The translations under genes and the position numbers were made by a program. The notes beneath the pieces are model-generated. The model was not told the origin of the DNA. It worked only from the letters and a program-made list of their open reading frames with translations, and did not search any database. From Massilicoli timonensis (lineage in GTDB: Bacteria > Bacillota_I > Bacilli_A > Erysipelotrichales > Erysipelotrichaceae), in NCBI RefSeq assembly GCF_900199515.1, contig NZ_LT963434.1, positions 1,233,272 to 1,265,271 of the forward strand: a stretch of DNA of 32,000 bases. Reading direction: 5' to 3'. Positions 4,652-31,171 of this stretch are shown here, in pieces (the stretch's first letter is position 1; the number at the start of each line of letters is the position of its first letter).

Positions 4652-4674
4652 CTTCGGGCCGATGTGGCCCGAGG
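4652..4674 (-). repeat. ICE hairpin repeat copy 1
   Basis: Plus strand CTTCGGGCCGATGTGGCCCGAGG. It abuts the TGA stop (4675-4677) of the upstream minus-strand CDS with a 0-nt gap. Confidence 0.9.
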
Positions 4675-4878
4675 TCAGTACGGACTGGAGTGGAACTTCT
4701 GTTTGGCGTCCTCCACGCTGTTGAGATCAAAGACTTCATAAAGCTGTCCCACAACACGACGAATATCCTTCTTTGAAAAGCCGCAGTCCTCCATTGCCAT
4801 GATGACATAGCCGCGGCAGGCATCGTTGCTCCATTCATCCGGCTCAAAACCGGGAAACATCCCAAACGCATTTTCCAT
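4675..4878 (-). CDS. Small hypothetical protein (67 aa)
   Basis: ORF 4675-4935. The likely start is MENAFGMFPGFEPDEW at 4878, 6 nt after AAGGAG. No recognisable motif. Confidence 0.55.
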   Translation of the reverse strand: MENAFGMFPGFEPDEWSNDACRGYVIMAMEDCGFSKKDIRRVVGQLYEVFDLNSVEDAKQKFHSSPY

Positions 4879-4894
4879 AAGAAACTCCTTTGAG

Positions 4895-4961
4895 AAAAAA
4901 GATGGGGAGCCCCGCCGGATTGGTTGGCCTATCATCAGACAGCATTGCCGGAGGGCTCCCC
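4895..4961 (-). terminator. Long GC hairpin plus T-run (terminator-like 3' end of the noncoding region)
   Basis: Minus strand GGGGAGCCCTCCGG...CCGGCGGGGCTCCCC (9+4 bp stem) followed by ATCTTTTTT. Confidence 0.5.
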
Positions 4962-5315
4962 ACAGGTTTTTACTACATTACAGACACACCGGACGGGCAT
5001 AGGCTTTCTGCCCCATAGTATTTCAACTCTCCCCATTCTGATGGCAAGGCGTTTTCATTGCCTGCGACGGCTCACGGCTTGCAAGGCCGCTTCAACGCTC
5101 GGACTGTGACTAAACGCAAGTATCCGGGTTATGTACCTGTTCCGGTGGAGCCAGCCTTGCCCCACCTATGGCATGAGCCTGATCGCTCGCCCTGTTTTAT
5201 AGAGACTGTATTCTCCAAAAGCAGAGGTCGTGGCGGGCCTGTCACACAGCGCATTTCCCTTCGTATCCGGGTGCCTTTTTATTCAGTTTTCGATTTGCAT
5301 GAGTGCTTGTCCGAA
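4895..5315 (-). ncRNA. Candidate structured noncoding RNA / long structured leader (unknown class)
   Basis: About 420 nt between hairpin copy 2 and the terminator-like hairpin, with no credible minus-strand ORF or RBS. It is GC-rich with many local complementary segments. The only track ORFs here are plus-strand shadows. Confidence 0.3.
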
Positions 5316-5338
5316 CCTCGGGCCACCTTGACCCGAAG
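5316..5338 (-). repeat. ICE hairpin repeat copy 2
   Basis: Plus strand CCTCGGGCCACCTTGACCCGAAG, about 50 nt 3' of the sigma-like gene stop. Confidence 0.85.
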
Positions 5339-5388
5339 TGTTTTGCCTCTCATAAGCCATTTCATTTTTTGGCCTAAATCGGTACACC

Positions 5389-5811
5389 TCACAAAGATTT
5401 TTTCAAAATTTTTTCCAAGTGCCGCAGCCCTCGCTCGATTGCCACACGGACTACTTTCTCATTGACCCCTTCTGCCCGGGCAATGTCCTGTTTCGTCATG
5501 CCAAGAATGAAGTGGGCGTAAATCCGTTTTGCCTGTTTGTCCGGCAAGCTGGCAATAGCAGCGTGAAGCTCCTGCATAGTAACTTTCCGCTCGTACAGTT
5601 CATGGGGCGTAAGTGCGACAAAGACAGCCTCATGCTCCAGCCCATCATCCCGATCAAGGGAATAGTAGGCTTTATGTCGGTATGTACGCAGCCGGTAAGC
5701 AGCCTCCTTGCGGTCAAATTCTTTGAACATTTCAGCAACTTCGTCCGATACTTCCATGAAGCAATCGGATGTATAAAACGGGTAGTAGTCCCGCAGATTG
5801 ATAATAGCCAT
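5389..5811 (-). CDS. Sigma-70 region-4 / HTH regulator (small ICE sigma-like factor, 140 aa)
   Basis: ORF 5389-5961. The likely start is MAIINLRDYYPFY at 5811, behind GGAGGTCAAT. The C-terminus LPDKQAKRIYAHFILGMTKQDIARAEGVNEKVVRVAIERGLRHLEKIL is a sigma-70 region-4 type HTH. Confidence 0.75.
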   Translation of the reverse strand: MAIINLRDYYPFYTSDCFMEVSDEVAEMFKEFDRKEAAYRLRTYRHKAYYSLDRDDGLEHEAVFVALTPHELYERKVTMQELHAAIASLPDKQAKRIYAHFILGMTKQDIARAEGVNEKVVRVAIERGLRHLEKILKKSL

Positions 5812-5884
5812 ATTGACCTCCGTTTCGGTTGGTGGTTGACAAGTGACCGAAACAGAGGCGGCGGGGAGCGGCACCGGGGAATGA

Positions 5885-5907
5885 CTTCGGGCCAACATGG
5901 CCCGAAG
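5885..5907 (-). repeat. ICE hairpin repeat copy 3
   Basis: Plus strand CTTCGGGCCAACATGGCCCGAAG (consensus), about 75 nt upstream of the sigma-like gene start. Confidence 0.9.
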
Positions 5908-6063
5908 CAGTCCCATAAGAACGCAAAAGCGCCCGGGCGGCACAAGGCCACTCGGACGCATGAAATGACATAGCAGTTAAGGTTCCAACAAATTTCACAT
6001 ACATAGCCGGAATAACCCGGAGGGGGAGCTATGCTTTTTTTAACTGATGCAGGTCATGGATAC

Positions 6064-6116
6064 TGTAAAAAAAGACAAAAATAGACACGGCGGCAATCCT
6101 CCTATATGCCGCCGTG
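6064..6116 (-). terminator. Strong intrinsic terminator
   Basis: Minus strand CACGGCGGCA-N11-TGCCGCCGTG followed by TCTATTTTTGTCTTTTTTT. Confidence 0.6.
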
Positions 6117-6152
6117 GATTTACACGGTGTTAGGTCGTCGTTGGTTTAGGAT

Positions 6153-6194
6153 AAACGAAAAGAAACGGCGGCTCTGATTTCTCAAAACCGCCGT
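6153..6194 (-). terminator. Intrinsic terminator
   Basis: Minus strand ACGGCGG-N16-CCGCCGT followed by TTCTTTTCGTTT. Confidence 0.5.
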
Positions 6195-6297
6195 AAGGAT
6201 ATAGAGGTGTCATAAAAGCACAAGAAATTGTCTGCCCGTCAGCGGTTTTTTTCTTTCCTCCGCTGTGGAGGCAGATGTTTCTTATTGATTTACCACA

Positions 6298-6387
6298 AGC
6301 ATAAACTACAAATGTTACACAAATGTCCGAGGTGCCTTTGATTTCGACAGAAAAACAGGCTGAATTGTTACAAAGCTCGGACATTTC
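6298..6387 (-). promoter_or_regulatory. Orphan copy of the response-regulator-box promoter (copy 3)
   Basis: Plus strand AAATGTTACACAAATGTCCGAGG (6310-6332, direct AAATGT-N5-AAATGT) sits 6 nt from a TATGCT -10 (6298-6303, minus sense). An upstream inverted site GAATTGTTACAAAGCTCGGACATTTC lies at 6362-6387. The architecture matches 9595-9684. Confidence 0.4.
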
Positions 6388-6454
6388 AAAAAATATTTGA
6401 GAAATAGCAGAACCGGCAGGGTAGCATACGCCCCCCGCCGATCCCATACAGTTG

Positions 6455-8872
6455 CTATTCCGTTCTCAATCGATCCACCAAAGTATCTTTCTCAATGGAT
6501 CGGCTAACCCCATAGCTAATGCAAATCTGCAATCCGACGAGCAAAATGGAGAATAAAAGAATCGGGAATATATTAAACTCAAAAAGGATAAATTTCAGAG
6601 CCAATACCTTATTTGCCAAATAGCATAGCAAAGCACCTACTGTAACGCCCAAAAAGGTTGCCAATATTGCAGACTTTACACTAATGCTCATTCCCTCTCG
6701 GTAAAGCATTTTTCTTAGTTGTTGATTTGTCATTCCAACTGCCTGTAAAAGCGCAAATTCCCGTTTACGGACAATAGCGCTGCTGATTAGCATATTCACC
6801 ATATTTAATAGCCCGAAAAGAATTACAAATGCAGAGATACCATACAGACTGCTTGTGGTTGCCTTTATGAATCATCTAATTGTAGAAAATTCTTCATCGT
6901 AAATTTTGAGCCTCAAATTCGGATTTCCGCTTATAAGCGCCATGATCCCATCTTGAACAGCTTCCCTATAATCCGGGTCGCAAAAAACGGATAAATGTGA
7001 TGTATTATTATAAGGGGAAAGTTCTGCTATTGCTTCGCTGGTACAATAGAACAACCCTGTTGATGGGAAGTACGCAATCCCGGCAACGGTAAAAGTTTTT
7101 TCAATGTTTTTTCCGGAAACATCAAAATGGAATAATAGTGTATCTCCAATTTTCAGATCGCCATAGTTTGTATCACTTCGATCTGTACGGTATTTATTGA
7201 CAACTATGCCATCCAGACCGACTTCATCATAATTGATTGTACCGTCCACAAGTTCACTTGCATTAGCAACAAGTTCTGGTGATAGACTGTTTACAATTTC
7301 TAAATTGTCCTCTGGCGAATCGTAGACAACTTTTGATTCTACTAAGCGGCCCACGACACATCCATCCAATACAATCTTTTCTACGCCGGGAATTTTATAT
7401 ATTTGTGCCTGCAAATCCTCTGATAGAGGATTGTCTTGAATGATAGTCGGAAAACGCTCATAAAAGTTATCCATCTGTATGCCAATCTGGAAATCCTCGT
7501 CTAATGGATAGCTTTGTCGCAACATAGCCGGAAGATTGATGGAAGAAATAAGGATAGCTAATGCAATCATCAAGGTTCCACTAATACTCAATGAAATAAT
7601 TGACATACGGTTTTTCTTCTGATTCATTTTCAGGTTGCTTTGCGCCAAAGTATTTGGTGTAATCCGCTTCAATGTTTTGTGTCCTTGTCTGGCCTTTTCC
7701 CCTTGAAATTTCATTGCTTCAATAGGAGAAGTTTTGGCAAGAAGTTTCGCCGGCTTTCTCAAAGCGAACTTGATAACAGCAAAAATCAAGAAACCAGACA
7801 ATAAAACAATCGCCATGTCATATAAAAGCCATTGCACCCCGGAGAGAATAACTACAATCAAAATAGAAATCAATGCTCCCAAAGGGATAAACCGTAATGC
7901 CAGTAAATTCCCCTGCATTTTCAAAAAGTAACGCAACTGTTTTTTCGTCGTCCCTAATGAAATGAACTGGGCATACATCGGCATCGAATTGACAATGGAA
8001 ATATAAAAAATACTGTAAATTACAAAACTGCTGGCGAACATAATGAATATCGCAAAAAAGATAATACCGACCACCACAGCACCATCAATATAGATTCCAT
8101 CAATATATCTGTCATTTAATATGATGTCAAAATCTTCAATACCTTCGGCTTCGCCTTTACTTTTCAAAAAATCTTTTTGAGTGTCAGGACTCATATCGGC
8201 TTTTTCCGAATTAAGTGAAACTAATACATCAACCGTCGTAGCGGTTTGCGTGCTGTAAGTTAAAGAAAGCTCGCTGTACTGCTTTGCGTATTCTGTGCGG
8301 AAACGATCAGAGGTCAGAATATAAAACTGTTTTCCTTTTTCCTGTGTTTTGTTTTGGATAATGCCACAAACAGTAAATGTGTTTTCTTTCAATTCATTTG
8401 TCAAGGTGTCTACATATTCAAAGGAAAATGTATCACCTAATACCAATTTGTGAATAGACAGATAAGTTTCAGATACAAGTACCTCTGTGTTATTTTGCGG
8501 CAGGTTTCCATCCAGCAGTTCAAAGCCCAAAAGGGACATTGCCGGATCATCCATGTATGCCAGATCAGTGCGCCCATCATCGTTCACAATATTACCAAAA
8601 GTTTTGTAAACACCAACTGCTTCAAAATCATTATCGGTCTGTAACTTATTTTTCGTATCTTCGCTCACAGCGCGAAACATAGCATGATAAGGTGCTTGTG
8701 TGGATTGTTTCAGTGCGTCATTTACTAAAATCGAAAAGACGGTTGCCATTAGGCAAGTCGCAATTACAATAATAATTGCAGTGATTAAAGTCTTGAGCCT
8801 ATGTTCCTTTAGGTCAGCTTTCGCCAGTTTCTTTATAATAGTGCTGGTATCATTTTCAAAAGGCCATGTCAT
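6455..8872 (-). pseudogene. FtsX-family ABC permease (BceB/MacB-like, 805 codons) interrupted by a single in-frame TGA at 6872-6874
   Basis: ORFs 6872-8872 and 6455-6802 are in the same frame. The 69 nt between them read through cleanly (FIKATTSSLYGISAFVILFGLLNMVNMLISSAIVRKREFALLQAVGMT, an FtsX domain). The N-terminus has the typical TM1 plus large extracellular domain. Confidence 0.75.
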
Positions 8873-8886
8873 AGCCTGCCACCCCC

Positions 8887-9552
8887 TTACTCCACGATCT
8901 TGCCGTCCTCAATGCGGACAATCCGATCTGCAAGACGGGCAATGTCGTTGTTGTGGGTAATCATCACAACAGTTTGCCGGAACTCCGCGCTGGTACGCTT
9001 GATAAGCCCCAGCACCTCGGCGCTGGTCTTGCTGTCAAGGTTGCCGGTCGGCTCGTCGGCCAGCACAATAGCCGGTTTGGTAATTAGGGCGCGGGCAATC
9101 GCCACACGCTGCTGCTGGCCGCCAGAAAGATTGTTCGGCATATTTTTCAGTTTATCTTCCAGCCCCAGCAGGTGAACAATCTCGTCCAAAAACTTCTGAT
9201 CCACCGTATCCCCGTCCAGCTCCACCGGCAGGACAATGTTCTCATATACATTCAGGATGGGAACAAGGTTATAGTTCTGGAAGATAAAGCCGATGTTGCG
9301 GCGGCGGAAGATGGTAAGCTGTTCGTCGTTCATTTTCGACAGCTCTTTGTCCCGGACAATCACATTGCCGGAAGTGGGGGTGTCCAGCCCGCCCATCATG
9401 TGAAGCAGGGTGGACTTGCCGCTGCCAGAAGTTCCCACAACGGCCACAAACTCGCCGTCCTCCACGGAGAAGTTCACGCCGTCAAGGGCGCGGGTGATGT
9501 TCGGCTCTGTGCCGTAATACTTTTTCAGGTCAATCGTCTGTAAAACGCTCAT
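8887..9552 (-). CDS. ABC transporter ATP-binding protein (BceA/MacB-type)
   Basis: Start MSVLQTIDLKKYYG at 9552, behind AAAGGAG. Walker A GTSGSGKST, signature LSGGQQQRVAIARAL, Walker B VLADEPTGNLD. Confidence 0.9.
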   Translation of the reverse strand: MSVLQTIDLKKYYGTEPNITRALDGVNFSVEDGEFVAVVGTSGSGKSTLLHMMGGLDTPTSGNVIVRDKELSKMNDEQLTIFRRRNIGFIFQNYNLVPILNVYENIVLPVELDGDTVDQKFLDEIVHLLGLEDKLKNMPNNLSGGQQQRVAIARALITKPAIVLADEPTGNLDSKTSAEVLGLIKRTSAEFRQTVVMITHNNDIARLADRIVRIEDGKIVE

Positions 9553-9594
9553 ATTCAAAACTCCTTTCAAGGCTTCCTGCCTGTTGATAAGGCT

Positions 9595-9684
9595 ATTGTA
9601 AAACCCAAATGTCCGCGAAATGTTACAGCGGCCAAAAAATTTCATTGAAAATCGGGGTGAAATGTTACAACGCTCGGACATTTC
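9595..9684 (-). promoter_or_regulatory. Response-regulator-box promoter of the ABC operon (copy 1)
   Basis: AAATGTCCGCGAAATGTTACAGCGG (9607-9631) lies 6 nt from a TACAAT -10 (9595-9600, minus sense). The inverted site GAAATGTTACAACGCTCGGACATTTC is at 9659-9684. The 25-mer is identical to 11496-11520. Confidence 0.5.
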
Positions 9685-9698
9685 ATTTTATTTCTGCA

Positions 9699-9721
9699 CT
9701 TCGGGCCAACTTGACCCGAAG
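9699..9721 (-). repeat. ICE hairpin repeat copy 4
   Basis: Plus strand CTTCGGGCCAACTTGACCCGAAG, 13 nt after the histidine kinase TGA stop. Confidence 0.85.
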
Positions 9722-9734
9722 TAGAAAGTTCCTC

Positions 9735-10766
9735 TCAACGCAAAGGAAGCATAATGGAAAATTCCGAACCCTTACCTGGCTCCGAAACCACTTTGATATA
9801 GCCGCCCTGCCGCGTTACGATCTCGCGGGCCAGATACAGGCCAATACCCACGCCCTGCTGTTCGTGTACTTCTTCCTCACGATAGAAGCGCCGAAAGATG
9901 GCGGCCTGATTGCTTTCGGAAATGCCCTTGCCAGTGTCGGCTACTTTGATTTCTACATACATTTCCCACAGCACCACCGACACCGTGATTTTCCCGCCTG
10001 CCGGGGTGTACTTTACTGCATTATCCAGCAGATTAAAGAGGGCTTCGGATGTCCACTTGCTGTCATGGGAGAGGGTGAGATCTTCCGGGCAGTCCACGGA
10101 CACAGCGATTTGTTTTTTCTCCGCTGCATACACGATTCCGCTCATGGCCTGCGCCACGGTATCAAATAGACGGCCCGGCTTCTTATCCAACTGAATCACA
10201 CCCGTTTCCAACCGGGAGGTTTTCACAAGGGCTTGAAAAAGAAAGTCCAGCTTATCCGTCTGGCTGCGGATTCCACGGATAAAATCGGTGCGCTCCGCCT
10301 CGGTCATTGGCTTTTCCAGCAGGGTGTCCGTTGCCATTTTCAGGTTACTTACCGGCGTTTTCACTTGATGGGAAATATCTGATACAAGGGTCTGTAGCTC
10401 CTGCCGTTCCTCGTCCACCCGGCGGCGGTTCTCCTGCATGATCTGGTAAAGCCTTGTCAGCCGGTGTCCGATTCTGGCAAGCTGGGTTTCGCTGTCCTCC
10501 GGGCGCTGGGGTGCTTCATTTCCGGCAATCATGTGGTCTAAGGTCTGGCACAGGTCAGCGGTAAACTGCGACAGCCGCTTTCCAAACACCTGTGTCAGTA
10601 CAAAAATTCCCACAAGGGCGCACAGTAGCAGCGCCCCGCCCGTCAACAGCACCGCCGTCTGTTTTGTCACAAGAAACAGAGCTATGGTGATCCCGGACAT
10701 GGAGAGGACAAGCCCTATTACCACCCGGCCAAACAGCCGCTTTACCGAGAGGTTTTGAAACTTCAT
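9735..10766 (-). CDS. Intramembrane-sensing histidine kinase (BceS-like)
   Basis: Likely start MKFQNLSVKRLF at 10766, overlapping the regulator stop (AAATGAAG). It has two N-terminal TM helices with almost no loop. H-box SDISHQVKTPVSNL and ATPase motifs NLLDNAVKYT, DTGKGI, GVGIGLYLA. Confidence 0.9.
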   Translation of the reverse strand: MKFQNLSVKRLFGRVVIGLVLSMSGITIALFLVTKQTAVLLTGGALLLCALVGIFVLTQVFGKRLSQFTADLCQTLDHMIAGNEAPQRPEDSETQLARIGHRLTRLYQIMQENRRRVDEERQELQTLVSDISHQVKTPVSNLKMATDTLLEKPMTEAERTDFIRGIRSQTDKLDFLFQALVKTSRLETGVIQLDKKPGRLFDTVAQAMSGIVYAAEKKQIAVSVDCPEDLTLSHDSKWTSEALFNLLDNAVKYTPAGGKITVSVVLWEMYVEIKVADTGKGISESNQAAIFRRFYREEEVHEQQGVGIGLYLAREIVTRQGGYIKVVSEPGKGSEFSIMLPLR

Positions 10767-11455: not shown

Positions 11456-11483
11456 ATCCTCACTTCCTTTGCTTTTTGCAGAT

Positions 11484-11520
11484 AGTATAACAGGCAAATG
11501 TCCGCGAAATGTTACAGCGG
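11484..11520 (-). promoter_or_regulatory. Response-regulator-box promoter of the two-component operon (copy 2)
   Basis: AAATGTCCGCGAAATGTTACAGCGG (11496-11520) lies 6 nt from a TATACT -10 (11484-11489, minus sense). Confidence 0.45.
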
Positions 11521-11562
11521 ACGGATTTTTTCAAAAAATCTATCAGCAAAATATAGCTCTAT

Positions 11563-11609
11563 TAAAAAAGCAGCACCAAAGAAGATATTTTCATATCCCC
11601 CCGGTGCTG
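11563..11609 (-). terminator. Probable terminator of the GntR-ABC operon
   Basis: Minus strand CAGCACC-N25-GGTGCTG followed by CTTTTTTAAT. The loop is large. Confidence 0.4.
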
Positions 11610-11617
11610 TTTATATA

Positions 11618-11740
11618 TTATTTCAGCTTATCCTTATTATCTTCTTGTTTCTTTTTATCCCGATATTTCCGTATGAGTTTATTACGGATAGGAACGCCAA
11701 CGCCAATCAGAAGAACTACCGCTAAAATTGTGAAATCCAT
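11618..11740 (-). CDS. Small single-pass membrane peptide (40 aa)
   Basis: MDFTILAVVLLIGVGVPIRNKLIRKYRDKKKQEDNKDKLK. Strong RBS GAGGTGA 5 nt before the ATG. It follows the ABC-2 permease directly. Confidence 0.5.
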   Translation of the reverse strand: MDFTILAVVLLIGVGVPIRNKLIRKYRDKKKQEDNKDKLK

Positions 11741-11750
11741 ATTGCTCACC

Positions 11751-12398
11751 TCACATTTCTTTATTTTCCATAATCCGAATGGAGAACCAGATCGACACAA
11801 CATACATGACAACGACGAGTACAAGCACAAGACCGATCAGCAGTACCGGGGAACTTACAACCGTAGTCACAAAGGGATTGTCTGCGGGCATCTTGGGCAG
11901 GAAAAACAAGGTCGCCAAAAATCCAGCCACAGGAATATACATGAACACACGGCCTTTAATGGCTCCATATTTGTAATAGCCCGGAATTTGAAATACGGTA
12001 TAGAGGGCAAACAGGAACAAACCGCCAATGGCCGCACTGATCATATCAAATGCTCCAACACTTTCACCCATTGCGCGCAGCACAATCGGCTGTGTGATAA
12101 GAGAAACCACCAGAGCCATCGCGCCCAGCGCAAGAACAAAGAGATACCGGCCTGTTACCATTTCGCTTTTCTTGATGGGTAAAATCCCATACAAACGCTC
12201 CATGCTGTTTTTCTCTGTTACCGAGAAAGTGTAGCCTGTGGTCATGGCGATAAAGCACATGGCAAATGAAACGCCGGTCAGGATGGAACGGTTAATGGCC
12301 GCAAAAGCGATAGGAAGAAGCATGGTAAACCCGATTACCTTGATATAGGGCTTTACCAGCGAAAAGTCCAATTTTGTTGCTTTTAATGTATTACTCAT
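11751..12398 (-). CDS. ABC-2 type transporter permease
   Basis: Likely start MSNTLKATKLDFSL at 12398, overlapping the ATPase stop (TATGAGTAA). Six predicted hydrophobic helices. Confidence 0.8.
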   Translation of the reverse strand: MSNTLKATKLDFSLVKPYIKVIGFTMLLPIAFAAINRSILTGVSFAMCFIAMTTGYTFSVTEKNSMERLYGILPIKKSEMVTGRYLFVLALGAMALVVSLITQPIVLRAMGESVGAFDMISAAIGGLFLFALYTVFQIPGYYKYGAIKGRVFMYIPVAGFLATLFFLPKMPADNPFVTTVVSSPVLLIGLVLVLVVVMYVVSIWFSIRIMENKEM

Positions 12399-13251
12399 AA
12401 TCGTCACCTTTCTTGCTCGTGAATACAACGATTTCATCAATGGTCGCCGGTTCAATGCTCAAAGGGGAAAAAGCGCCCGTATCTTCGGTCTTGACAAGAG
12501 CCTCAAAGCCCGTAGGGAATGTACGGACACCGACCGCTTTTTCCTTCAGGTCAGCAGACAGTTCTTCTGTTCCTCCTTTGACAATGCGGAACATATCGAC
12601 AAATTCATCCTTGCTGCCGCTGAAAAACAATTCTCCATAGCTGATATAAGTGATATAGTCCGCAGCGCGTTCCAGATCGCCGGTAATATGGGTGGAGAAC
12701 AGTACACTGTGTTCTCCGTCCTCGATATATTCCGAGAGAATTTGAAGCAGTTCATCTCTGGAAACCGGATCGAGGCCGCTGGTGGGTTCGTCCAGGATCA
12801 GCAGCTTTGCATCGTAAGAGAACGCACAGGCCAGCATCAACTTCATCTGCATCCCCTTTGAGAGTTCTTTCACTTTCTTGGTGGGAGCAATATGGAACTT
12901 CCGCAGCATCTCGGCAAACCGTTCCGACTTCCAGTTGGGATAGAAAACGGAGATGGATTTCTCTACTTGTGTTACCTGCCAATCATCGCTGAAATAGTTG
13001 GTATCAAATACAACACCGAGTTCCGCTTTTGCTTTCTGCTCGTCAGCGATATTATCCAGCCCCATGATCTTGATTTCGCCGCCGTTGCGCTGGAGCATAT
13101 TCAGAATGAGTTTGATAGTGGTTGTCTTGCCGGAGCCATTTGGCCCGATCAGCCCCATAATATATCCCTTTGGCAAAGTGAAGCTGATGTTGTGAAGCTG
13201 GAAACTGTCAAAGGATTTCGAGAGGTTTTTAACCTCTAAATAGTTAGTCAT
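12391..13251 (-). CDS. ABC transporter ATP-binding protein
   Basis: Walker A GPNGSGKTT, signature LSKGMQMKL, Walker B LILDEPTSGLD. Its start overlaps the GntR stop. Confidence 0.9.
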   Translation of the reverse strand: MTNYLEVKNLSKSFDSFQLHNISFTLPKGYIMGLIGPNGSGKTTTIKLILNMLQRNGGEIKIMGLDNIADEQKAKAELGVVFDTNYFSDDWQVTQVEKSISVFYPNWKSERFAEMLRKFHIAPTKKVKELSKGMQMKLMLACAFSYDAKLLILDEPTSGLDPVSRDELLQILSEYIEDGEHSVLFSTHITGDLERAADYITYISYGELFFSGSKDEFVDMFRIVKGGTEELSADLKEKAVGVRTFPTGFEALVKTEDTGAFSPLSIEPATIDEIVVFTSKKGDDYE

Positions 13252-13627
13252 CTGTATTCGCCTCCAATAAAATATCTAAAAGACGGTGCAGTTCCTCATT
13301 TGGAAGATTTGCTATTTTTGCCGCCTTGATTGCATCGGTCAACCCATTTTCTACTTTGCAGATAAGTTGCTCTCTCATTAGTTCAGAGCCACGGCCCATG
13401 ACAAAGCAGCCGCGCCCCTGGACATTTTTGACAAATCCCTCTTGCTCTAATTCTGTGTAAGCCCGTGTAACTGTTAGGACGCTGATTTTCAAATCTTTTG
13501 CCAGCGTTCGGAGGGAAGGTAAGGCTTCGTCCTCTTTCAGTTCTCCAGATAGGATTGCCGCCTTGACCTGCTGCTTAATTTGCTCGTAGATGGGTACGCC
13601 TGATACATTTGAAATAATTAGTTTCAA
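13244..13627 (-). CDS. GntR-family (YtrA-like, short) transcriptional regulator
   Basis: 127 aa. Winged HTH LPSLRTLAKDLKISVLTVTRAYTELEQEGFV. It is the first gene of a GntR-ABC-ABC2 operon. Confidence 0.9.
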   Translation of the reverse strand: MKLIISNVSGVPIYEQIKQQVKAAILSGELKEDEALPSLRTLAKDLKISVLTVTRAYTELEQEGFVKNVQGRGCFVMGRGSELMREQLICKVENGLTDAIKAAKIANLPNEELHRLLDILLEANTDD

Positions 13628-13653
13628 TCCATCTCACCTTCTTGCTGTTTTAA

Positions 13654-13677
13654 CTGTTATACTATTATATATAACAG
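13654..13677. promoter_or_regulatory. Palindrome CTGTTATA-N8-TATAACAG, candidate GntR operator
   Basis: A perfect 8-bp inverted repeat in the AT-rich region directly upstream of the GntR gene start. Confidence 0.4.
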
Positions 13678-13795
13678 CATAACACAATAAGAGCAAAATG
13701 GCAAGTGCATATTAGGTAAAATAATTTAGACCACAATATAAAATTTCATTACATTCTCATAATCTGACCCGAAATGTACAATGATATAGGGTGAT

Positions 13796-14272: not shown

Positions 14273-14295
14273 CTTCGGGCCAACATGGCCCGAAG
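14273..14295 (-). repeat. ICE hairpin repeat copy 5
   Basis: Plus strand CTTCGGGCCAACATGGCCCGAAG (consensus), 34 nt after the relaxase stop. Confidence 0.9.
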
Positions 14296-15795: not shown

Positions 15796-15797
15796 GA

Positions 15798-15820
15798 CTT
15801 CGGGCCAACATGGCCCGAGG
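15798..15820 (-). repeat. ICE hairpin repeat copy 6
   Basis: Plus strand CTTCGGGCCAACATGGCCCGAGG, 4 nt after the TAA stop at 15825-15827. Confidence 0.9.
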
Positions 15821-23231: not shown

Positions 23232-23254
23232 CTTCGGGCCAGCATGGCCCGAAG
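23232..23254 (-). repeat. ICE hairpin repeat copy 11
   Basis: Plus strand CTTCGGGCCAGCATGGCCCGAAG. It lies in the open frame upstream of the hydrolase ATG and reads ASGHAGPK. Confidence 0.9.
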
Positions 23255-23429
23255 CGCCGGTCTGCCCGGTATCCTCGTCCTCAAACCGCAGGCGTCGGGA
23301 CGGTGCGGGGGAAGGTCCTTCCCGGTCAGCCGGTCCGGGGCGAGTGCTCCCGGTATCCTCCGGCGGCCCCGGCCTTTGAAAATTCCGTTTATCCGGTTTC
23401 TTTCCGATGATGTATCCCTCCTTTCCGAA

Positions 23430-23452
23430 CCTCGGGCCAGCATGGCCCGAAG
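23430..23452 (-). repeat. ICE hairpin repeat copy 12
   Basis: Plus strand CCTCGGGCCAGCATGGCCCGAAG. It lies 4 nt after the VirB4 TAA stop and is followed by TTCGGAAAGGAGGG. Confidence 0.9.
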
Positions 23453-23456
23453 TGTG

Positions 23457-26190: not shown

Positions 26191-26211
26191 TTCGTTACAC
26201 CTCCTTTGCCG

Positions 26212-26234
26212 CTTCGGGCCAACATGACCCGAAG
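26212..26234 (-). repeat. ICE hairpin repeat copy 13
   Basis: Plus strand CTTCGGGCCAACATGACCCGAAG. It abuts the TAG stop (26235-26237) with a 0-nt gap and is followed by CGGCAAAGGAGG. Confidence 0.9.
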
Positions 26235-26855: not shown

Positions 26856-26874
26856 GGGTTTCGCCTCCTTTCCG

Positions 26875-26897
26875 CTTCGGGCCAGCATGGCCCGAGG
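26875..26897 (-). repeat. ICE hairpin repeat copy 14
   Basis: Plus strand CTTCGGGCCAGCATGGCCCGAGG. It abuts the TGA stop (26898-26900) with a 0-nt gap and is followed by CGGAAAGGAGGCG. Confidence 0.9.
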
Positions 26898-27539
26898 TCA
26901 ACGCTCTGTGCCACGGCTGGGCTTTTCCTTCGGGGGCCGTTCCGCCTTTGCCTGTTCGGCAGCCGCTTTCCCGGCCTTGAGCTGTTCGCTGATGGACGCA
27001 CGCCCGGCAGAGCCGCGCTCCGCCATCTGTTCCAGCTTTACTTCATAGGCTTGCAGAACAGCGGTGTTGAGCTGTTCCCGGAACTCCTTCGTGACAGGAT
27101 AGGCCATATCCCGGTAGCCGCCCTTGCCGTCCGGCTGGCTGGGCATCCCCACGAAAAGGCCCTTGCTGCCCTGCACGATTTTCAGATTTTCCACCACAAA
27201 GCAGTCGTTGAATTTCACGCTGGCAAAGCCCATCAGGTTTTTCACAGGTTCGATGACCCGCACGCTTACATCCAGCTTCAACGGTGCGGCGGGGGTGGTG
27301 TCCGCAACCTTTTCCTGCATGGTTTCCTCCTTTCCGGCGGGAACAAGATTCCCGTCCTTGTAGTCATAGCCTTCCGCCCGGAGTGCCGCCAGCGTGTCCG
27401 CCGATACGCACCCGGACAGTTTCAGATCGGCTTCTACCATAAAGCGCATGGTGTCTGTTTTAGAAAATTCCTCGGGGAGCTTTCCGTAGAAAGCCGGGTG
27501 CGGCTGTCCGTCCGCGCCCTGTTTGTAGCGCCGGGGCAT
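26898..27539 (-). CDS. Protein with a central SpoVG-like nucleic-acid-binding domain
   Basis: VSVRVIEPVKNLMGFASVKFNDCFVVENLKIVQGSKGLFVGMPSQPDGKGGYRDMAYPVTKEFREQLNTAVLQAY aligns by eye with SpoVG (ASITLD.EFVVHDIRVI.G..GLFVAMPS....G.FRDIAHP......I..AVL..Y). Confidence 0.7.
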   Translation of the reverse strand: MPRRYKQGADGQPHPAFYGKLPEEFSKTDTMRFMVEADLKLSGCVSADTLAALRAEGYDYKDGNLVPAGKEETMQEKVADTTPAAPLKLDVSVRVIEPVKNLMGFASVKFNDCFVVENLKIVQGSKGLFVGMPSQPDGKGGYRDMAYPVTKEFREQLNTAVLQAYEVKLEQMAERGSAGRASISEQLKAGKAAAEQAKAERPPKEKPSRGTER

Positions 27540-27554
27540 ACCGCCTCCTTTCCG

Positions 27555-27577
27555 CTTCGGGTCAGCATGGCCCGAAG
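27555..27577 (-). repeat. ICE hairpin repeat copy 15
   Basis: Plus strand CTTCGGGTCAGCATGGCCCGAAG. It lies 4 nt after the TAA stop and is followed by CGGAAAGGAGGCG. Confidence 0.9.
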
Positions 27578-27581
27578 TCTC

Positions 27582-28448
27582 TTAATGGCAGCCGAAGATG
27601 GATTTTGCAAGGCTGCCCGTTTTGAACAGGGTAAAACACAGCAGCACCGTATAGCCCACACAGCCCCAGATCGCCCCGATGGGGTCGCCGTCGGTGGCGA
27701 TACTCTGGATAAGCACCGCATAGATAGCGACACAGACCAAAATGAGCAAGCCTTGAAAGCCCACCGCAAAGAGGGAGCGGAAATAGTTCTGCCCCATGTG
27801 TCCGGTTTCCCGGTTGGGGACGGTGGCAAACGGGATGGGTGCCAAACTTGTGAGTAAGTAAATTTCAATCATACGGCCATATACGATCACGAAGATCACG
27901 ATGTTTAAGGCAATCATGGTAAGCTGAATCAGGAATGACTGGAGCCAGAGGCCAAACAGGGGACCTAACTCCATTGCCTCCAGCTCGGTCCGCAGACTGT
28001 CCATTACATCCGTTGTGATCTCTGTCCCGTTCTGGATAATGCCCGCCGATTGCTGGATGACGTGCTGGCTCACGTCAAAGACGGCCAGCACGATATTGAA
28101 GGTATTCGTCAGGATTATTACCGCCACAAAGGTTTTGAACACCCACTTGAAAAACATCCATGTGTCAACGTCATGGAGGTTGTTGCGGTCAATGAGCATT
28201 TGTATCAGCTCATAGGTCATTACAAAAGTGAGGATGACCCCGGCGATTGGCAGGATGGCGGTTTCAGAGATTTGCCGTATCATGGAAAAGACCCCGGCGT
28301 TCCAGTCCGCCGGGGTCGTGCCTACCTGTGTGGCGATCTCGCCAACGCTCTGATTGACGTTATTGAAAAGGCCATCCAGATTTCCCATGATACCATCGAC
28401 AAGCAAACCTTTGAGCCATTCAACGATTGCGTCGATGATAAAGTCCAT
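27582..28448 (-). CDS. Multi-pass T4SS membrane protein (VirB6-like)
   Basis: 288 aa with about 6 hydrophobic helices. RBS AAAGGAG. It sits between the Maff2-like gene and the VirB4 cluster. Confidence 0.7.
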   Translation of the reverse strand: MDFIIDAIVEWLKGLLVDGIMGNLDGLFNNVNQSVGEIATQVGTTPADWNAGVFSMIRQISETAILPIAGVILTFVMTYELIQMLIDRNNLHDVDTWMFFKWVFKTFVAVIILTNTFNIVLAVFDVSQHVIQQSAGIIQNGTEITTDVMDSLRTELEAMELGPLFGLWLQSFLIQLTMIALNIVIFVIVYGRMIEIYLLTSLAPIPFATVPNRETGHMGQNYFRSLFAVGFQGLLILVCVAIYAVLIQSIATDGDPIGAIWGCVGYTVLLCFTLFKTGSLAKSIFGCH

Positions 28449-28489
28449 ACATCAGCTCCTTTTCTGGAAAAAGGGACAACGGGTAAGGG

Positions 28490-28705
28490 TTAGCTGAACA
28501 GGCCGGACAGCAGAGGGATAAGCTGCATACCGATCAGGACGACACCGCCGCCCGCCATGAGCTGCTTAATGCCCTGGCTCTTTGCCGCGGGGTTGTCGGA
28601 CCCGTAACCTTCCAGCAGGTTGATGACGCCCCACACCGCCAGACCAGCGCCCAGCGCCATGACCAGAATCTTGAGAATGTCGATAGCAGAGTTGAAAAAT
28701 TCCAT
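28490..28705 (-). CDS. Small two-TM membrane protein (Maff2-like)
   Basis: Likely start MEFFNSAIDILKILVMALGAGLAVWGVINLLEGYGSDNP at 28705, 7 nt after GGAGG. Confidence 0.65.
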   Translation of the reverse strand: MEFFNSAIDILKILVMALGAGLAVWGVINLLEGYGSDNPAAKSQGIKQLMAGGGVVLIGMQLIPLLSGLFS

Positions 28706-28741
28706 ATACGTTCCTCCATTTTGTTTTTTGGTTTTGGGTAC

Positions 28742-28766
28742 AAAAAAAGCCGCCCACATTGGCGGC
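28742..28766 (-). terminator. Intrinsic terminator after hairpin copy 16
   Basis: Minus strand GCCGCC-AATGTG-GGCGGC followed by TTTTTTT. Confidence 0.65.
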
Positions 28767-28767
28767 G

Positions 28768-28790
28768 CTTCGGGCCATCATGGCCCGAAG
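28768..28790 (-). repeat. ICE hairpin repeat copy 16
   Basis: Plus strand CTTCGGGCCATCATGGCCCGAAG. It abuts the VirD4 TAA stop (28791-28793) with a 0-nt gap. Confidence 0.9.
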
Positions 28791-30614
28791 TTACACAAAC
28801 TCGTCGCTGTCCAGATCGTCGAAATTCAACAGGTCAGCTTCTTCGTCTGTGTCGGAGCCGTCCACCTCGTACACCGTGTATTCGTCCTCCGGCTTTAGTC
28901 TCAATGGCCGGTGGCGGAACAGGCTTTCCAAGTGGAAGGCGTTTTTCTTTTTGTCAAACTCGGCTGTGTACTTGTAGTTGGGGTGCTTTTTCAAATCGTA
29001 TTTGGGAGAAAAGAAGGGCGGAAGCCCTCGAAGCTGCAAGATACACTTGTCTCCCGGCATAGTAGTGATTTCGCTGGTCGTCATCAGCTCCCGGCCAAGC
29101 CGCTGCATATTCTGGCTGTAACTCTCGGACTGACCCCGGCTGCGGCCTTCGGTCTGCATGGAGATGGTGGCCTTGCCCAGCCAGTTTTCCGAAATATCCT
29201 TTAGGGTGGAAGCCTCCCGGCCTCCGAGGAACACGATACTGTCCATGTTTCCCATGATGGTTTCGGAATGGTCCTTGTACAGCGCCTTGCATTGGCTCAT
29301 AGCCTGATAAAAGAGCGTCAGGCTGATCTCCCGGGAACGGATAACGGCAACGATTTTTTCCAGCCCCGGCACCTGTCCCGTGTTGGCCGCCTCGTCCCAC
29401 AGCACCCGTACATGATGGGGCAGGCGTCCGCCGTAGGTGTTGTCGGCCCGTTCACACAGAAGGTTGAACATCTGCGAGAAAGCGAGGGCCACAAGAAAGT
29501 TATAGGTGGTGTCCGTATCGCTGATAAGGAAAAACAGCGCCGATTTTTCATCCCCCAGCCGGTCAAGCTCCAGCTCGTCATAGGACATGATCTCCCGAAG
29601 CTGGGGAATGTCAAAGGGGGCAAGTCTGGCTCCACAGCTAATCAGTATGCTCTTAGCTGTCTTGCCGCTTGCCAGCTTGTACTTCTTATACTGCCTCACA
29701 GCAAAGTGCTGGGGACTCCGGCGCTCCAGCCCGTCAAACATATAGTCCACCGCATTTTTGAAGGTTTCGTCATCCTCCCGGACTTCCATGCTGTTTATCA
29801 TTTCCACCAGCGTATTCATGTTGCGTTCTTCCTCCGGCCCCTCAAACACGATGTAGGCCACAAGAGCGCAGTATAAAAGGGTTTCGGCTTTGGTCCAGAA
29901 CTCGTCGCCCTCCTTGCCGTCGCCTTTGGTGTTGGCGATCAGGGCGGTGACGAATTTCAGCACGTCGCTTTCCGTTTTGATGTAGGCCAGCGGATTGTAG
30001 TGCATGGATTTGGAGAAGTCGATACTATTGAACACCCGCACCTTATATTTCTCCCGTTGCAGGAACCGCCCGCATTGGTCGAGGGTGCCGCCCTTCGGGT
30101 CCACCACCACATACGAGGAGTGGGCTTGAAGGAGCTGCGGGGTCAGCCAGAACCTTGTCTTGCCCGAACCGGACGAGCCGATGACGCAGGCGTTCAGGTT
30201 GCGGGCGTTGGCGGGTATCTTCGGGCGGGTGTTCATGGTAAGGAACTCCGTCCCGGTCAGAATGACATTGTTCTGAAATTTGGGGTCTACAAACGGCTTT
30301 ATATCCTCCTTTGTTCCCCAGCGGGCGGTGCCGTACTCCGCATCCCTCCGGAATTTCTTTGCCTGCTTGATTTTGGACTGTATCAGCAGATACACCCCAG
30401 CCGCACCGGCGAGGCCCACCAGCAGGTCAATGCCACCCAGCCCCGGCCAGTAAGTTTCAAAGGCTTTGGGGAAGGTGTCGAGCATCCCCATGAGCTTTGT
30501 CCCGAAGTCTGCGCCGGGCGCGATACGGTAGGCCGTCCCGATTTTGGAGAAAAACCAGAACACAAAGAGGTACGGCAGGTTGGGGAGCACATATTTTCTG
30601 ATCTTGTCACTCAA
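28791..30614 (-). CDS. VirD4/TraG-type type IV coupling protein
   Basis: 607 aa with N-terminal TM helices and Walker A GSSGSGKTRF. The TTG start overlaps the PcfB stop (CGTTGAGTG). Confidence 0.9.
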   Translation of the reverse strand: MSDKIRKYVLPNLPYLFVFWFFSKIGTAYRIAPGADFGTKLMGMLDTFPKAFETYWPGLGGIDLLVGLAGAAGVYLLIQSKIKQAKKFRRDAEYGTARWGTKEDIKPFVDPKFQNNVILTGTEFLTMNTRPKIPANARNLNACVIGSSGSGKTRFWLTPQLLQAHSSYVVVDPKGGTLDQCGRFLQREKYKVRVFNSIDFSKSMHYNPLAYIKTESDVLKFVTALIANTKGDGKEGDEFWTKAETLLYCALVAYIVFEGPEEERNMNTLVEMINSMEVREDDETFKNAVDYMFDGLERRSPQHFAVRQYKKYKLASGKTAKSILISCGARLAPFDIPQLREIMSYDELELDRLGDEKSALFFLISDTDTTYNFLVALAFSQMFNLLCERADNTYGGRLPHHVRVLWDEAANTGQVPGLEKIVAVIRSREISLTLFYQAMSQCKALYKDHSETIMGNMDSIVFLGGREASTLKDISENWLGKATISMQTEGRSRGQSESYSQNMQRLGRELMTTSEITTMPGDKCILQLRGLPPFFSPKYDLKKHPNYKYTAEFDKKKNAFHLESLFRHRPLRLKPEDEYTVYEVDGSDTDEEADLLNFDDLDSDEFV

Positions 30615-31081
30615 CGTCCGTCCTTCACCGCCTCTCTGGTCCGCTGCTTCTCCTTCGGCTTCGTCCTGATCTGCTCCGTGAGCTTTCGGAGCTGGCCGAG
30701 GATAGAAGTCTTGTCCTGGTCTTTGTTCAGCACCTTTGTACTGTATTTCTGGAAGGCCGCCGTGATGGCGTCCGCCTGATTGGATTTGAAGAACAGCAGG
30801 TAATGGCCGGGGCTCACTTTATGGAAAGCGTAGTCCACATGGAACTCCTTCGCTATCCGGTCAAAATCCTTCGGCGCGCCCACATACTGCATGGCGTTTT
30901 TGCCGCCGTAGTGGTTCATCAGCTTCTTCACGCTCTGGCGGCCCTGCGGGGTCAGCGCCTTCCGGTGGTGCTTTTGCAGCGCCCGAACCACCTTGCCAAG
31001 AGCGGCGGCCAGCACTTTTCCCGTCAGCTTTGCCGTCTTGATCGAAAGGGCAACTGTTTTTTGGTTTACTTCTTCCTGCAT
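30611..31081 (-). CDS. PcfB-like conjugation protein
   Basis: 156 aa. MQEEVNQKTVALSIKTAKLTGKVLAAAL...DYAFHKVSPGHYLLFFKSNQADAI resembles PcfB/DUF3801 proteins that precede coupling proteins. RBS AAAGGAGG. Confidence 0.7.
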   Translation of the reverse strand: MQEEVNQKTVALSIKTAKLTGKVLAAALGKVVRALQKHHRKALTPQGRQSVKKLMNHYGGKNAMQYVGAPKDFDRIAKEFHVDYAFHKVSPGHYLLFFKSNQADAITAAFQKYSTKVLNKDQDKTSILGQLRKLTEQIRTKPKEKQRTREAVKDGR

Positions 31082-31148
31082 AAAACCTCCTTTCCGTCAG
31101 GGCTCCCGGTAGACGGGAGGCCCCCGTACACTCCGGGGCAACAGAAAA

Positions 31149-31171
31149 CCTCGGGCCAATGTGGCCCGAGG
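31149..31171 (-). repeat. ICE hairpin repeat copy 17
   Basis: Plus strand CCTCGGGCCAATGTGGCCCGAGG (perfect 9-bp arms), 1 nt after the TAA stop at 31173-31175. Confidence 0.9.

Follow-up and report, generated by a model that had tools for sequence, protein, structure and literature searches.

Dispersed 25-bp palindromes of a Firmicutes integrative and conjugative element as candidate parS-like sites for an orphan ParB-family protein

What reads a short palindrome that recurs, with few changes, at the gene junctions of a mobile element? The question is raised by a 32,000-nucleotide stretch of the Massilicoli timonensis genome (assembly GCF_900199515.1, contig NZ_LT963434.1, positions 1,233,272 to 1,265,271 of the forward strand), which we call ‘the window’ and whose coordinates are counted below from its first base. 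The window comprises ∼2.7 kb of chromosome, the remainder being an integrative and conjugative element (ICE) with nearly all of its genes on the minus strand. A preliminary description, made from the sequence alone, had listed 17 copies of a hairpin-forming 23-nucleotide (nt) unit in the ICE and had left open which of several kinds of factor might recognize it. The computational analysis reported here leads us to consider it reasonably probable that these units are candidate parS-like sites in duplex DNA, forming an array for an orphan ParB-family protein encoded by the ICE.

The pattern CYTCGGGYC-N5-GRCCCGARG has 16 exact matches in the window, and 17 copies are found at up to three mismatches to the consensus (the seventeenth being that at 16209); the corresponding expectations in shuffled sequence are 0.00 and 0.03 matches. 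All 17 lie where the preliminary description had placed them. Its account of their variation also holds, in that the arms differ by transitions only (at positions 2 and 8 and, in copy 7, also at position 1) and the plus-strand spacer ends in CAT in 11 of 17 copies. The 9-bp arms that it described are present, but the 5-nt spacer is not entirely free. Among 195 non-redundant copies the base at −1 is A in 143 and the base at +1 is T in 138, and the spacer has the form A-NNN-T. These bases extend the symmetry and make the unit a 25-bp palindrome, A-CTTCGGGCC-A-NNN-T-GGCCCGAAG-T, with three free central bases and a half-site of A-CYTCGGGYC-A.

The copies are absent from the chromosomal flank (1–2750) and from three AT-rich blocks (about 6000–8880, 11500–13750 and 16232–17136), as first described; copy 4 (9699) falls within an accessory two-component/ABC module. 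Placement between genes or at the extreme 3′ end of a gene, claimed originally for every copy, holds for most of them but not for copy 11, which is inside an 89-amino-acid (aa) open reading frame (ORF; 23174–23443), ∼58 nt before its stop. None of the 17 copies is followed by a T-run, in agreement with the view that they are not ordinary terminators, and an intrinsic terminator function was rejected on that ground; separate GC hairpins with T-runs of their own follow copies 1, 6 and 16. An origin-of-transfer (oriT) inverted repeat was likewise rejected, since the 17 copies are dispersed and only one is in the mob region, as was an integron attC site (an imperfect palindrome of 57–141 bp, used by IntI): the unit here is 25 bp and near-perfect, and the element has no IntI, its recombinase being a large serine recombinase.

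Conservation of the unit is at the level of its sequence. Among ICEs that are ∼97% identical, nucleotide diversity rises from 0.010 in the arms, where it is mostly at positions 2 and 8, to 0.037 in the flanks and 0.123 at the three central nucleotides. The low diversity of the arms relative to the flanks, together with the sharing of one arm variant by the copies of each ICE, bears out the earlier deduction that a specific reader exists. The central 3 nt, at orthologous sites of the window and L121–L179, are ∼3-fold more diverse than the flanks, which could reflect a neutral spacer or hypermutation of a loop.

A degenerate-pattern scan of one genome per species (596 Gb) returned at least 120 stretches of up to 8 kb. 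Among the matches listed, the multi-copy loci are all from Firmicutes and are accompanied by homologues of the window's ICE genes at 50–100% amino-acid identity; one of them, L014 from Gemmiger formicilis, is the same element with identical copy spacing. Single matches in high-GC Actinobacteria and other genomes were discarded, as they have random centers and no ICE genes and occur at the rate expected by chance in 596 Gb. A second sample, blind to the hairpin, was drawn from a metagenome collection by TrbL_2 homology (the best 80 matches, mostly 97–100% identical), and divergent elements were reached through ParB homologues. In the TrbL_2-chosen sample the same arms are found in every relative down to 74% TrbL_2 identity, at 0.4–0.9 sites per kb.

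The chromosomal flanks of the window and of L157 contain no copies, and neither does ∼200 kb of other Firmicutes DNA. The preliminary description had raised the question of whether the copies are restricted to the ICE; judged from these flanks and the ∼200 kb of unrelated Firmicutes DNA rather than from the whole host genome, they are, traveling with the ICE family but with neither flanking nor unrelated DNA. Tn1549, a Monoglobus element and a Streptococcus agalactiae element (TrbL_2 57, 53 and 41% identical, respectively) have zero motif copies at up to four mismatches and no other recurrent palindrome. These three elements also have no ParB gene, though their type IV secretion system (T4SS) operon is homologous. 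Since such operons exist without the motif, the hairpins are no general requirement of this operon type.

Could the palindrome be a selfish sequence, of the type of repetitive extragenic palindromic (REP) sequences or miniature inverted-repeat transposable elements, spread within the ICE by a transposase or gene conversion and without function for it? The many near-identical copies, with one variant per element, would fit such an origin, as would an IS110-family element 9 bp from copy 8 and a gene-content polymorphism bounded by copies (both described below). We consider this highly improbable. Orthologous junctions are occupied in ICEs whose proteins are only 50–75% identical, pointing to ancient sites rather than recent insertions, and the arms show purifying selection when compared with the flanks. 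Neither a REP-associated tyrosine transposase (RAYT) nor an IS200/IS605-type transposase is among the ICE genes, no copies occur in chromosomal flanks or the ∼200 kb of other Firmicutes DNA, and the IS110 element is missing from near-identical ICEs.

REP sequences and bacterial interspersed mosaic elements (BIMEs) are short, GC-rich, imperfect intercistronic palindromes that form stable RNA hairpins and are possible targets of IS110-family elements. An assignment to REP/BIME sequences with a RAYT was set aside because no copies were seen in the window and L157 flanks or other fetched Firmicutes DNA and no Y1 transposase is present among the ICE genes. Unlike the REP/BIME sequences of enterobacteria, which number hundreds genome-wide and are mobilized by RAYTs, the palindromes described here belong to one ICE family without a RAYT and are tied to a ParB gene.

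That gene is found where the ICE continues past the window. The element runs ∼4.3 kb beyond the right end, where 97–100% identical elements have three further copies of the site, giving ∼20 per element. In these elements the first gene of the ICE, ∼3.5 kb to the right of the window, encodes an orphan ParB-family protein of 457–459 aa, and is followed by genes for a C5 methylase and ArdA and by a 349-aa gene that the window end cuts. We regard this protein as the best candidate reader; the proteins named in the preliminary description (XRE, sigma-like, SpoVG-like, MobC and relaxase) do not include it, because its gene is just outside the window. A dimeric DNA-binding protein was nonetheless among the kinds of reader considered there, and is the one that the evidence favors.

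In its predicted architecture, the ParB-like protein consists of a disordered N-terminus of ∼165 aa, a ParB N-terminal (CTPase) domain, a helix-turn-helix and a C-terminal domain. The N-terminal domain is matched by Pfam ParB_N (E = 2.5e-19) and by TIGR00180, and the protein aligns with Spo0J, ParB, Noc and KorB, with GHRR placed opposite the GERR cytidine triphosphate (CTP) motif (GxRR); sequence similarity to KorB is weak (E = 3e-5). Its helix-turn-helix (which includes VKQVQRYIRLNEL and VKQVQRYIRL) is 49% identical to that of true ParB proteins carrying the Pfam HTH_ParB domain (PF17762), and this domain is present in relatives. An AlphaFold model has predicted local distance difference test (pLDDT) values of 80–89 in the N-terminal domain, the C-terminal part being poorly modelled; its top Foldseek matches are ParB-CTPγS, Noc, KorB and Spo0J, over both the N-terminal and the DNA-binding domains. 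One 90%-identity cluster of the protein alone holds 23,026 sequences. The disordered region (residues 1–165 of P0008; L157, 2373–2870) is rich in Pro, Glu and Lys and contains an AT-hook-like RRGRPPK; classical ParB has no such region. No ParA gene is found beside the ICE ParB-like gene in L157 or in L211–L216. The system is thus not a classical ParABS module, for which an adjacent ParA is lacking in the ICE; ParA is present in distant elements of the L024/L207 type.

The site and the gene are physically linked. One site is located within parB itself, in the linker between two domains, where it encodes RTSGQIDPK, and another directly follows the parB stop. The coding sequence of Bacillus subtilis spo0J contains a parS site. 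In parB homologues that are only 35–50% identical (L032, L046, L061 and L118), the identical 23-mer is found at the same codon position, with the proviso of ascertainment, these four having been found through the DNA pattern; in L034 and L070, closer homologues, the palindrome segment is deleted. A ParB homologue of L024 (49% identical), encoded in a ParA-ParB-RepA_N element, has at the same position a 27-bp perfect palindrome, A-CTTGTACCC-AAGTT-GGGTACAAG-T, in which five positions per arm are changed and their partners changed to match, so that the peptide now reads TCTQVGYK. The compensated changes and altered peptide indicate that the palindrome is conserved and not the peptide. Palindromes of this L024 type are single-copy within ±10 kb on four contigs.

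A palindrome in the linker appears to characterize the ParB clade. From 1.84 billion cluster representatives searched with a profile (∼4,500 of them matched at E ≤ 1e-30) we assembled 150 diverse clade members, of which 129 could be anchored, and we asked of each linker whether any synonymous codon choice can give a 25-bp palindrome in the observed register. All 12 pairs are reachable in 74 of the 129 linkers and at least 11 in 117 of them; control windows reach 12 in 0.12% of cases, so that ∼4 proteins would be expected to do so by chance (P about 1e-75). The implied sites share a common frame, ACTT-N5-CAAGTTG-N5-AAGT, with at least 28 distinct cores. These clade palindromes are deduced from protein sequence; three cores were verified on DNA as perfect and three more as near-perfect.

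Site and protein also vary together among elements. We compared six further ICE-type ParB-like contexts (L211–L216; 53–85% identical to each other), five of which carry several copies of an arm variant of their own, with the copy inside parB being the same or nearly the same variant in three. The window and L157 have CTTCGGGCC..GGCCCGAAG arms (17 copies in the window, ∼20 per element), a copy in parB, and the helix sequence NKM[AT]VKQVQRY. L211 has seven copies of CTTCGGGAC..GTCCCGAAG, with an exact copy in parB, alongside KPMNGKQVQRY. The variant CYTCYGGAC..GTCCAGARG is found both in L212 (seven copies; CTTCCGGAC-AAAAT-GTCCAGAAC in parB; NNMNPKQVQRY) and in L215 (six copies; CTTCTGGAC-AAATT-GACCAGAAG in parB; NSMNAKQVQRY). 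L214 has three copies of CTTSKGGAC..GTCCAMAAG, an imperfect copy in parB and NDMNSKQVQRY, and L213 has two copies of CCTTGGGAC..GTCCCRAGG in 4.7 kb, none in parB, and NGMNYKQVQRY. The single copy in L216 is CTTGAGGAC..GTCCCGAAG, and its parB linker is without a palindrome. Taken over these elements, the inner core GGCC is paired with the helix M[AT]VKQVQRY and GGAC with MN[GSPAY]KQVQRY, at the start of the presumed recognition helix, which would look like the pattern expected of co-evolution between a ParB and its site. The specificity of ParB and Noc is set by few interface residues (PMC7383237). In L204 (Subdoligranulum), which was found by TrbL_2 homology, ten copies of CTT[CT]G[GA]GAC..GTCCCGAAG occupy junctions that have orthologues in the window (those following VirD4 and the relaxase gene, for instance); its record ends inside VirD4 and has no ICE genes at the other end, and it was not used for the comparison of ParB and site. 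What these ICEs offer as a ParB-type site system is a dyad-symmetric multi-copy site and a ParB-family protein that are linked and co-vary, an association that is correlative and phylogenetically confounded.

The same arguments from symmetry and conservation would hold for duplex sites of another dimeric protein of the ICE, such as the ribbon-helix-helix protein NikA/MobC, the sigma-70 r4-like protein with its 86-aa partner, or the SpoVG-domain protein. These candidates are present in the motif-carrying ICEs and absent or different in Tn1549, and SpoVG is unusually divergent (35% identity) in L204 with its variant site. We nevertheless judge a reader of this kind to be quite improbable, because the palindrome family is found in single copy inside parB of ParA-ParB-RepA_N elements that have none of these candidates, and because the signal of palindromes in linkers is a feature of the ParB clade.

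Is the unit read as a duplex, or as a hairpin in a single strand? In a primary role at the RNA level it would be an intercistronic hairpin that protects cistron ends, directs processing or insulates translation, with a SpoVG-domain protein, for example, as its reader. The predicted RNA fold of a full copy (∼−19 kcal/mol, z = −6) is in keeping with this, as are the location of copies in the transcribed backbone, the center orientation shared by 11 of 17 copies in the window, and a modest covariation between the arms. So is a recurrent layout on the gene strand, which in many copies runs from the stop codon through 0–4 nt, the palindrome, 1–6 nt and GAAAGGAGG to the next start codon; 38 of 80 oriented copies lie 0–4 nt from a stop codon.

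A hairpin of RNA or single-stranded DNA should tolerate only the wobbles of its own strand, and we used the 118 copies that are confidently oriented by flanking genes to compare G·U with C·A at the two variable base pairs. On the sense strand there are 6 G·U versus 14 C·A at base pair 2, and 15 G·U versus 13 C·A at base pair 8. Given no bias between the two, the RNA-only reading was set aside. In most relatives, moreover, the center is AASTT, which makes the unit a perfect 25-bp palindrome whose ‘loop’ is itself symmetric. The single orientation of the spacer noted in the preliminary description is true of the window but not beyond it, where the center is AGCAT in gene sense, the reverse of ATGCT; the two orientations occur within one transcription direction of the same ICE.

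Some copies are in coding sequence (that in parB, and copy 11), and those in parB homologues are conserved at the nucleotide level in operon contexts that are not shared, including the single-copy sites of ParA-ParB elements. Three copies in L211 are half-sites, with one arm and only the inner GTCC of the other, and fold at −6.3 kcal/mol versus −19 kcal/mol for full copies. The arm variants are element-specific and uniform, more than structure alone requires; Rfam 15 (cmscan of the whole window, E ≤ 1) has no match at any copy; and the homologous T4SS operon of Tn1549 is without such hairpins. The original framing of the unit as a hairpin thus gives way in view of the missing strand bias, the symmetric center in most relatives, the intragenic copies and the half-sites. 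From these sequence comparisons the unit is probably not primarily an RNA hairpin, and we hold a primary RNA-level role to be unlikely.

Hairpins in the transferred single strand, which might serve for complementary-strand priming or offer the relaxase or its accessory proteins secondary sites, would account for the restriction of the units to the ICE, their density along the backbone and the strength of the fold, and one copy does lie in the mob region, between NikA/MobC and DUF5699. We give this proposal very little credence. The absence of strand asymmetry and the half-site copies speak against it, and conservation at orthologous junctions does not fit it. The single-copy palindromes inside parB of ParA-ParB elements tie the family to parB and not to transfer, and Tn1549-type relatives with a homologous relaxase and T4SS have no sites.

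Several points weigh against a ParB-bound site array. The window does not reach the ParB gene, whose presence in this copy of the ICE is taken from the 97–100% identical elements. Phylogeny confounds the co-variation of site and ParB helix, as the lineages differ in all their ICE proteins. At 23–25 bp with a 3-bp free center, the site is longer than the classical 16-bp parS. Sites are present in ICEs of the L213 type and L034/L070 type although the parB genes of these ICEs are without an internal palindrome; L203 has a ParB-like gene and no recurring palindrome; and L149 carries a site but, as far as its contig shows, no ParB-like gene upstream. For a site that acts purely as DNA, the regularity of placement is striking, with 38 of 80 copies at 0–4 nt after a stop and many at 1–6 nt ahead of a ribosome-binding site, and it could reflect selection at the RNA level. 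Finally, the covariation between arms, modest as it is (base pair 2, odds ratio 4.6, P = 0.001; base pair 8, odds ratio 2.4, P = 0.055), is predicted by a hairpin model and not by a simple model of two half-sites. In view of the regular placement and the arm covariation, an additional role at the RNA level is possible.

Two of these relatives deserve a fuller account. L149 (1–9800) is a mosaic: from TrbL_2 on it matches the window type at 98% identity, with a site at 10704, while the VirD4 (57%), Maff2 (71%) and PcfB (35%) of its upstream part come from a motif-free lineage, with no sites or ParB-like gene visible there. L203 (10782–10805) and L136 (889–912) each have a single palindrome, CCCTTTCCC-AAGACT-GGGAAAGGG, after a different ParB-like gene, whose product is 55–57% identical, has the helix NYKKVMRYLRL and has a linker without a palindrome; this sequence may be the protein's own site, or merely the stem of a terminator. 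L136 was dropped as an instance of mismatch between ParB and site, being a junction of two different elements, and L139, L163 and L175 were dropped as ICEs without ParB, having another element inserted into Maff2.

How might a ParB-like protein use such an array? By analogy with characterized ParB proteins, a dimer would recognize the palindrome, close as a CTP-dependent clamp and slide onto neighboring DNA. Loading sites at nearly every gene junction (∼1 per 1.3 kb of backbone) would let the clamp cover the conjugation and maintenance backbone and spare recent cargo. Its output might be element-wide control of transcription, or else compaction, marking or segregation of the excised ICE. The sites would be transcribed into hairpins because they lie inside operons, and the RNA hairpin (∼−19 kcal/mol, between a stop codon and the next ribosome-binding site) would then be an unavoidable by-product that may have been co-opted.

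A bolder scenario can be put forward only tentatively. In it, a large clade of Firmicutes ParB proteins would write its own site into the codons of its linker, with the diverse 5-nt core (at least 28 variants) serving as an identity or incompatibility code for mobile elements; the gut ICE family would have dropped ParA and multiplied the site to ∼20 copies, at almost all gene junctions, so that the clamp controls or packages the backbone and skips cargo, and the same 25-bp element would also act as a hairpin of −19 kcal/mol in the polycistronic mRNA.

Although the preliminary description knew of no function for such a unit, and the site itself is in no paper that we found, systems of this kind are known, in which a ParB-family clamp of a mobile element has multiple palindromic sites. 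Its closest counterparts include KorB of the IncP-1 plasmid RK2 (PMC11790492; PMC13584720), a ParB-family CTPase on a conjugative element, as the ICE protein would be if its CTP dependence is the same. KorB loads at OB sites and slides (PMC11790492). Its short palindrome (TTTAGCSGCTAAA, central S) occurs in multiple scattered copies, some of them far from promoters, from which the clamp acts at a distance. KorB differs in working with a ParA (IncC) and with KorA/TrbA, there being no ParA or KorA homologue seen here; the ICE differs in having ∼20 sites of 23–25 bp at nearly every intercistronic junction of a Firmicutes element, with one in the linker of the ParB gene.

The ParB-like CTP clamp BisD of ICEclc, from Pseudomonas, is likewise encoded by an ICE and has no classical partition role (PMC12409273). 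Its bisS site, which is found in genes, is a palindrome of 23 bp whose 11-bp arms enclose one central base (PMC12409273), a geometry that equals the AASTT form of the present site, and intragenic sites are common to both systems; the BisD clamp spreads over ∼50 kb of ICE DNA (PMC12409273). Unlike the ICE described here, with its ∼20 sites and the disordered AT-hook N-terminus of its ParB-like protein, ICEclc has only two bisS sites and belongs to another phylum and ICE family, and its BisD has a dedicated activator domain and a partner, BisC; no BisC homologue was seen here, and none was searched for.

Chromosomal ParB(Spo0J)-parS and Noc-NBS (Noc-binding site) share with the ICE system a homologous CTPase domain with GxRR, a helix-turn-helix, multi-copy palindromes and specificity through few helix residues (PMC7383237). 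They differ in that parS and NBS are contiguous palindromes of 14–16 bp and that classical ParB works with ParA and SMC, whereas the sites here mark a mobile element, occupy the linker between the CTPase and DNA-binding domains, and have a 5-nt core that diversifies among elements. HerB/YfjB, a ParB-like protein of the leading region of conjugative plasmids (PMC13370423), is encoded beside anti-restriction genes, as the ICE protein is beside the C5 methylase and ArdA genes; its mapped sites are on the host chromosome, where it reprograms host transcription, whereas those described here are on the element.

The differences from known systems are the density of sites and their placement at nearly every junction, the lack of ParA, the disordered AT-hook N-terminus and the self-encoded site with a diversifying core. 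We found no description in the literature of this site, of this ParB on Tn1549-related or conjugative-transposon (CTn)-type ICEs, or of the palindrome-in-linker rule; full-text matches to the arm sequences were primer noise only.

The ICE family is extremely common in human-gut Clostridia and carries accessory cargo of the resistance type. If the ParB interpretation is correct, the family would add a Gram-positive, ICE-borne member to the few whole-element ParB clamps (KorB, BisD), with the highest site density so far and without ParA, and parB and its sites would provide a testable handle on silencing, activation and maintenance of these ICEs. The palindrome-in-linker rule would predict the cognate site from sequence alone for many ParB proteins of the clade (∼4,500 cluster representatives), and would make the clade a natural series for the study of how ParB specificity diversifies. 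The palindromes would also be a source of spurious long ORF calls (through an ATG in the loop) and hot spots of insertion and recombination, which may account for some of the mosaicism of these elements.

The copies in the window can be followed through the genes of the ICE, among which are those for a serine recombinase, the 86-aa protein and the sigma-70 r4-like protein, together with accessory ABC transporter, two-component and GntR modules. Copy 1 (4652–4674; CTTCGGGCC-GATGT-GGCCCGAGG) adjoins the stop of the 86-aa gene, with a separate terminator-like hairpin next to it; copy 2 (5316–5338; CCTCGGGCC-ACCTT-GACCCGAAG) is 50 nt past the stop of the sigma-like gene; and copy 3 (5885–5907), a perfect copy with center AACAT, is at the sigma-70 r4-like gene, within its 5′ region or leader. 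Copy 4 (9699–9721) has a center of the symmetric type, AACTT; its neighbors, one on either side, are the histidine-kinase and ABC-ATPase genes of the accessory module.

A further group of genes encodes a MobA-type relaxase, DUF5699, NikA/MobC and DarA_C, and is accompanied by an IS110-family insertion. Here copy 5 (14273–14295), perfect, is 34 nt past the relaxase stop, a site with orthologues in L204, L031 and L119. Copy 6 (15798–15820) is 4 nt past the DUF5699 stop, and after it, upstream of the relaxase gene, there is a separate hairpin with a T-run. Copy 7 (16209–16231; CTTCGGGTC-AACAT-GGCCCGAAA) is 36 nt upstream of DUF5699 and adjoins a plus-strand insert (16292–17128). Copy 8 (19857–19879) was originally just upstream of the DarA_C ribosome-binding site; the IS110-family element (18311–19847, ∼1537 bp; transposase at 18477–19727, plus strand) now sits between the two, ∼9 bp from the copy. 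IS110-family elements target REP-like palindromes, and the palindrome of copy 8 may have been the target of this insertion, which is missing from the otherwise near-identical ICE L014.

The remaining genes encode Cys-rich VLP, CD1107-like, NlpC/P60, VirB4, PrgI, DUF7007, SpoVG+LPD26, TrbL_2, Maff2 and VirD4 proteins. Copy 9 (20378–20400; perfect, center ACGAT) is 6 nt upstream of the Cys-rich VLP start, and copy 10 (21266–21288; perfect) is upstream of the ribosome-binding site of the CD1107-like gene. Copy 11 (23232–23254; perfect) encodes ASGHAGPK within the 89-aa ORF, and its equivalent in L211 and L212 is inside the 5′ end of a called NlpC/P60 gene. Copy 12 (23430–23452) is 4 nt past the VirB4 stop, with GGAAAGGAGGG directly next, and copy 13 (26212–26234) adjoins the DUF7007 stop, 21 nt ahead of the PrgI start. 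Copy 14 (26875–26897), adjoining the SpoVG/LPD26 stop, and copy 15 (27555–27577), 4 nt past the TrbL_2 stop, are each followed by CGGAAAGGAGG and ATG; copy 15 is orthologous in L013, L040, L157 and L212. Copy 16 (28768–28790) adjoins the VirD4 stop and is orthologous in L013, L034, L040, L204, L211, L212, L214 and L215. Copy 17 (31149–31171; CCTCGGGCC-AATGT-GGCCCGAGG), whose base pair 2 is compensated to C-G, is 1 nt past the stop of a 349-aa-type gene truncated by the window end.

Just downstream of copy 16 is a separate intrinsic terminator (28730–28767, minus strand; GCCGCC..GGCGGC plus a T-run), between VirD4 and Maff2, that is conserved in L013, L034, L040, L204, L212, L214 and L215; its conservation ahead of Maff2 suggests a transcriptional boundary or attenuator. 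At 23443 and 26888 (minus strand) an ATG in the palindrome center is in frame with the downstream genes, and longest-ORF calling starts the 89-aa and DUF7007 ORFs inside the palindrome. These ORF starts are probably an annotation trap; use of the loop ATG as a start codon was set aside, as proper ribosome-binding sites with their own ATGs are found downstream.

Between TrbL_2 and DUF7007 the gene content differs among elements, with palindromes at its boundaries (window, 26875–27577; L157, 10872–11936; L161, 10872–11357). L157 has MT-A70, a site and SpoVG, L161 has SpoVG only, and the window has a single LPD26-SpoVG fusion, with site spacings of 580 + 462, 462 and 680 bp, respectively; this variation may reflect recombination at the sites.

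In the chromosomal flank, a SAM (S-adenosylmethionine) riboswitch (RF00162) is found at 579–666 (minus strand; 46.4 bits, above the gathering score). A weak match to RF03532, a cis-regulator of a helix-turn-helix transcription factor, in the AT-rich cargo (6146–6354, minus strand; 36.5 bits versus a gathering score of 100, E = 0.005) is probably not significant. Lastly, a serine-recombinase element is inserted just upstream of TrbL_2 in four independent relatives (L139, ∼5700–6700; L163, ∼8200–9200; L175, ∼8300–9200; L204, 1256–12036), and in L204 it demonstrably splits the Maff2 gene, which suggests that a second mobile element targets Maff2 of this ICE family.

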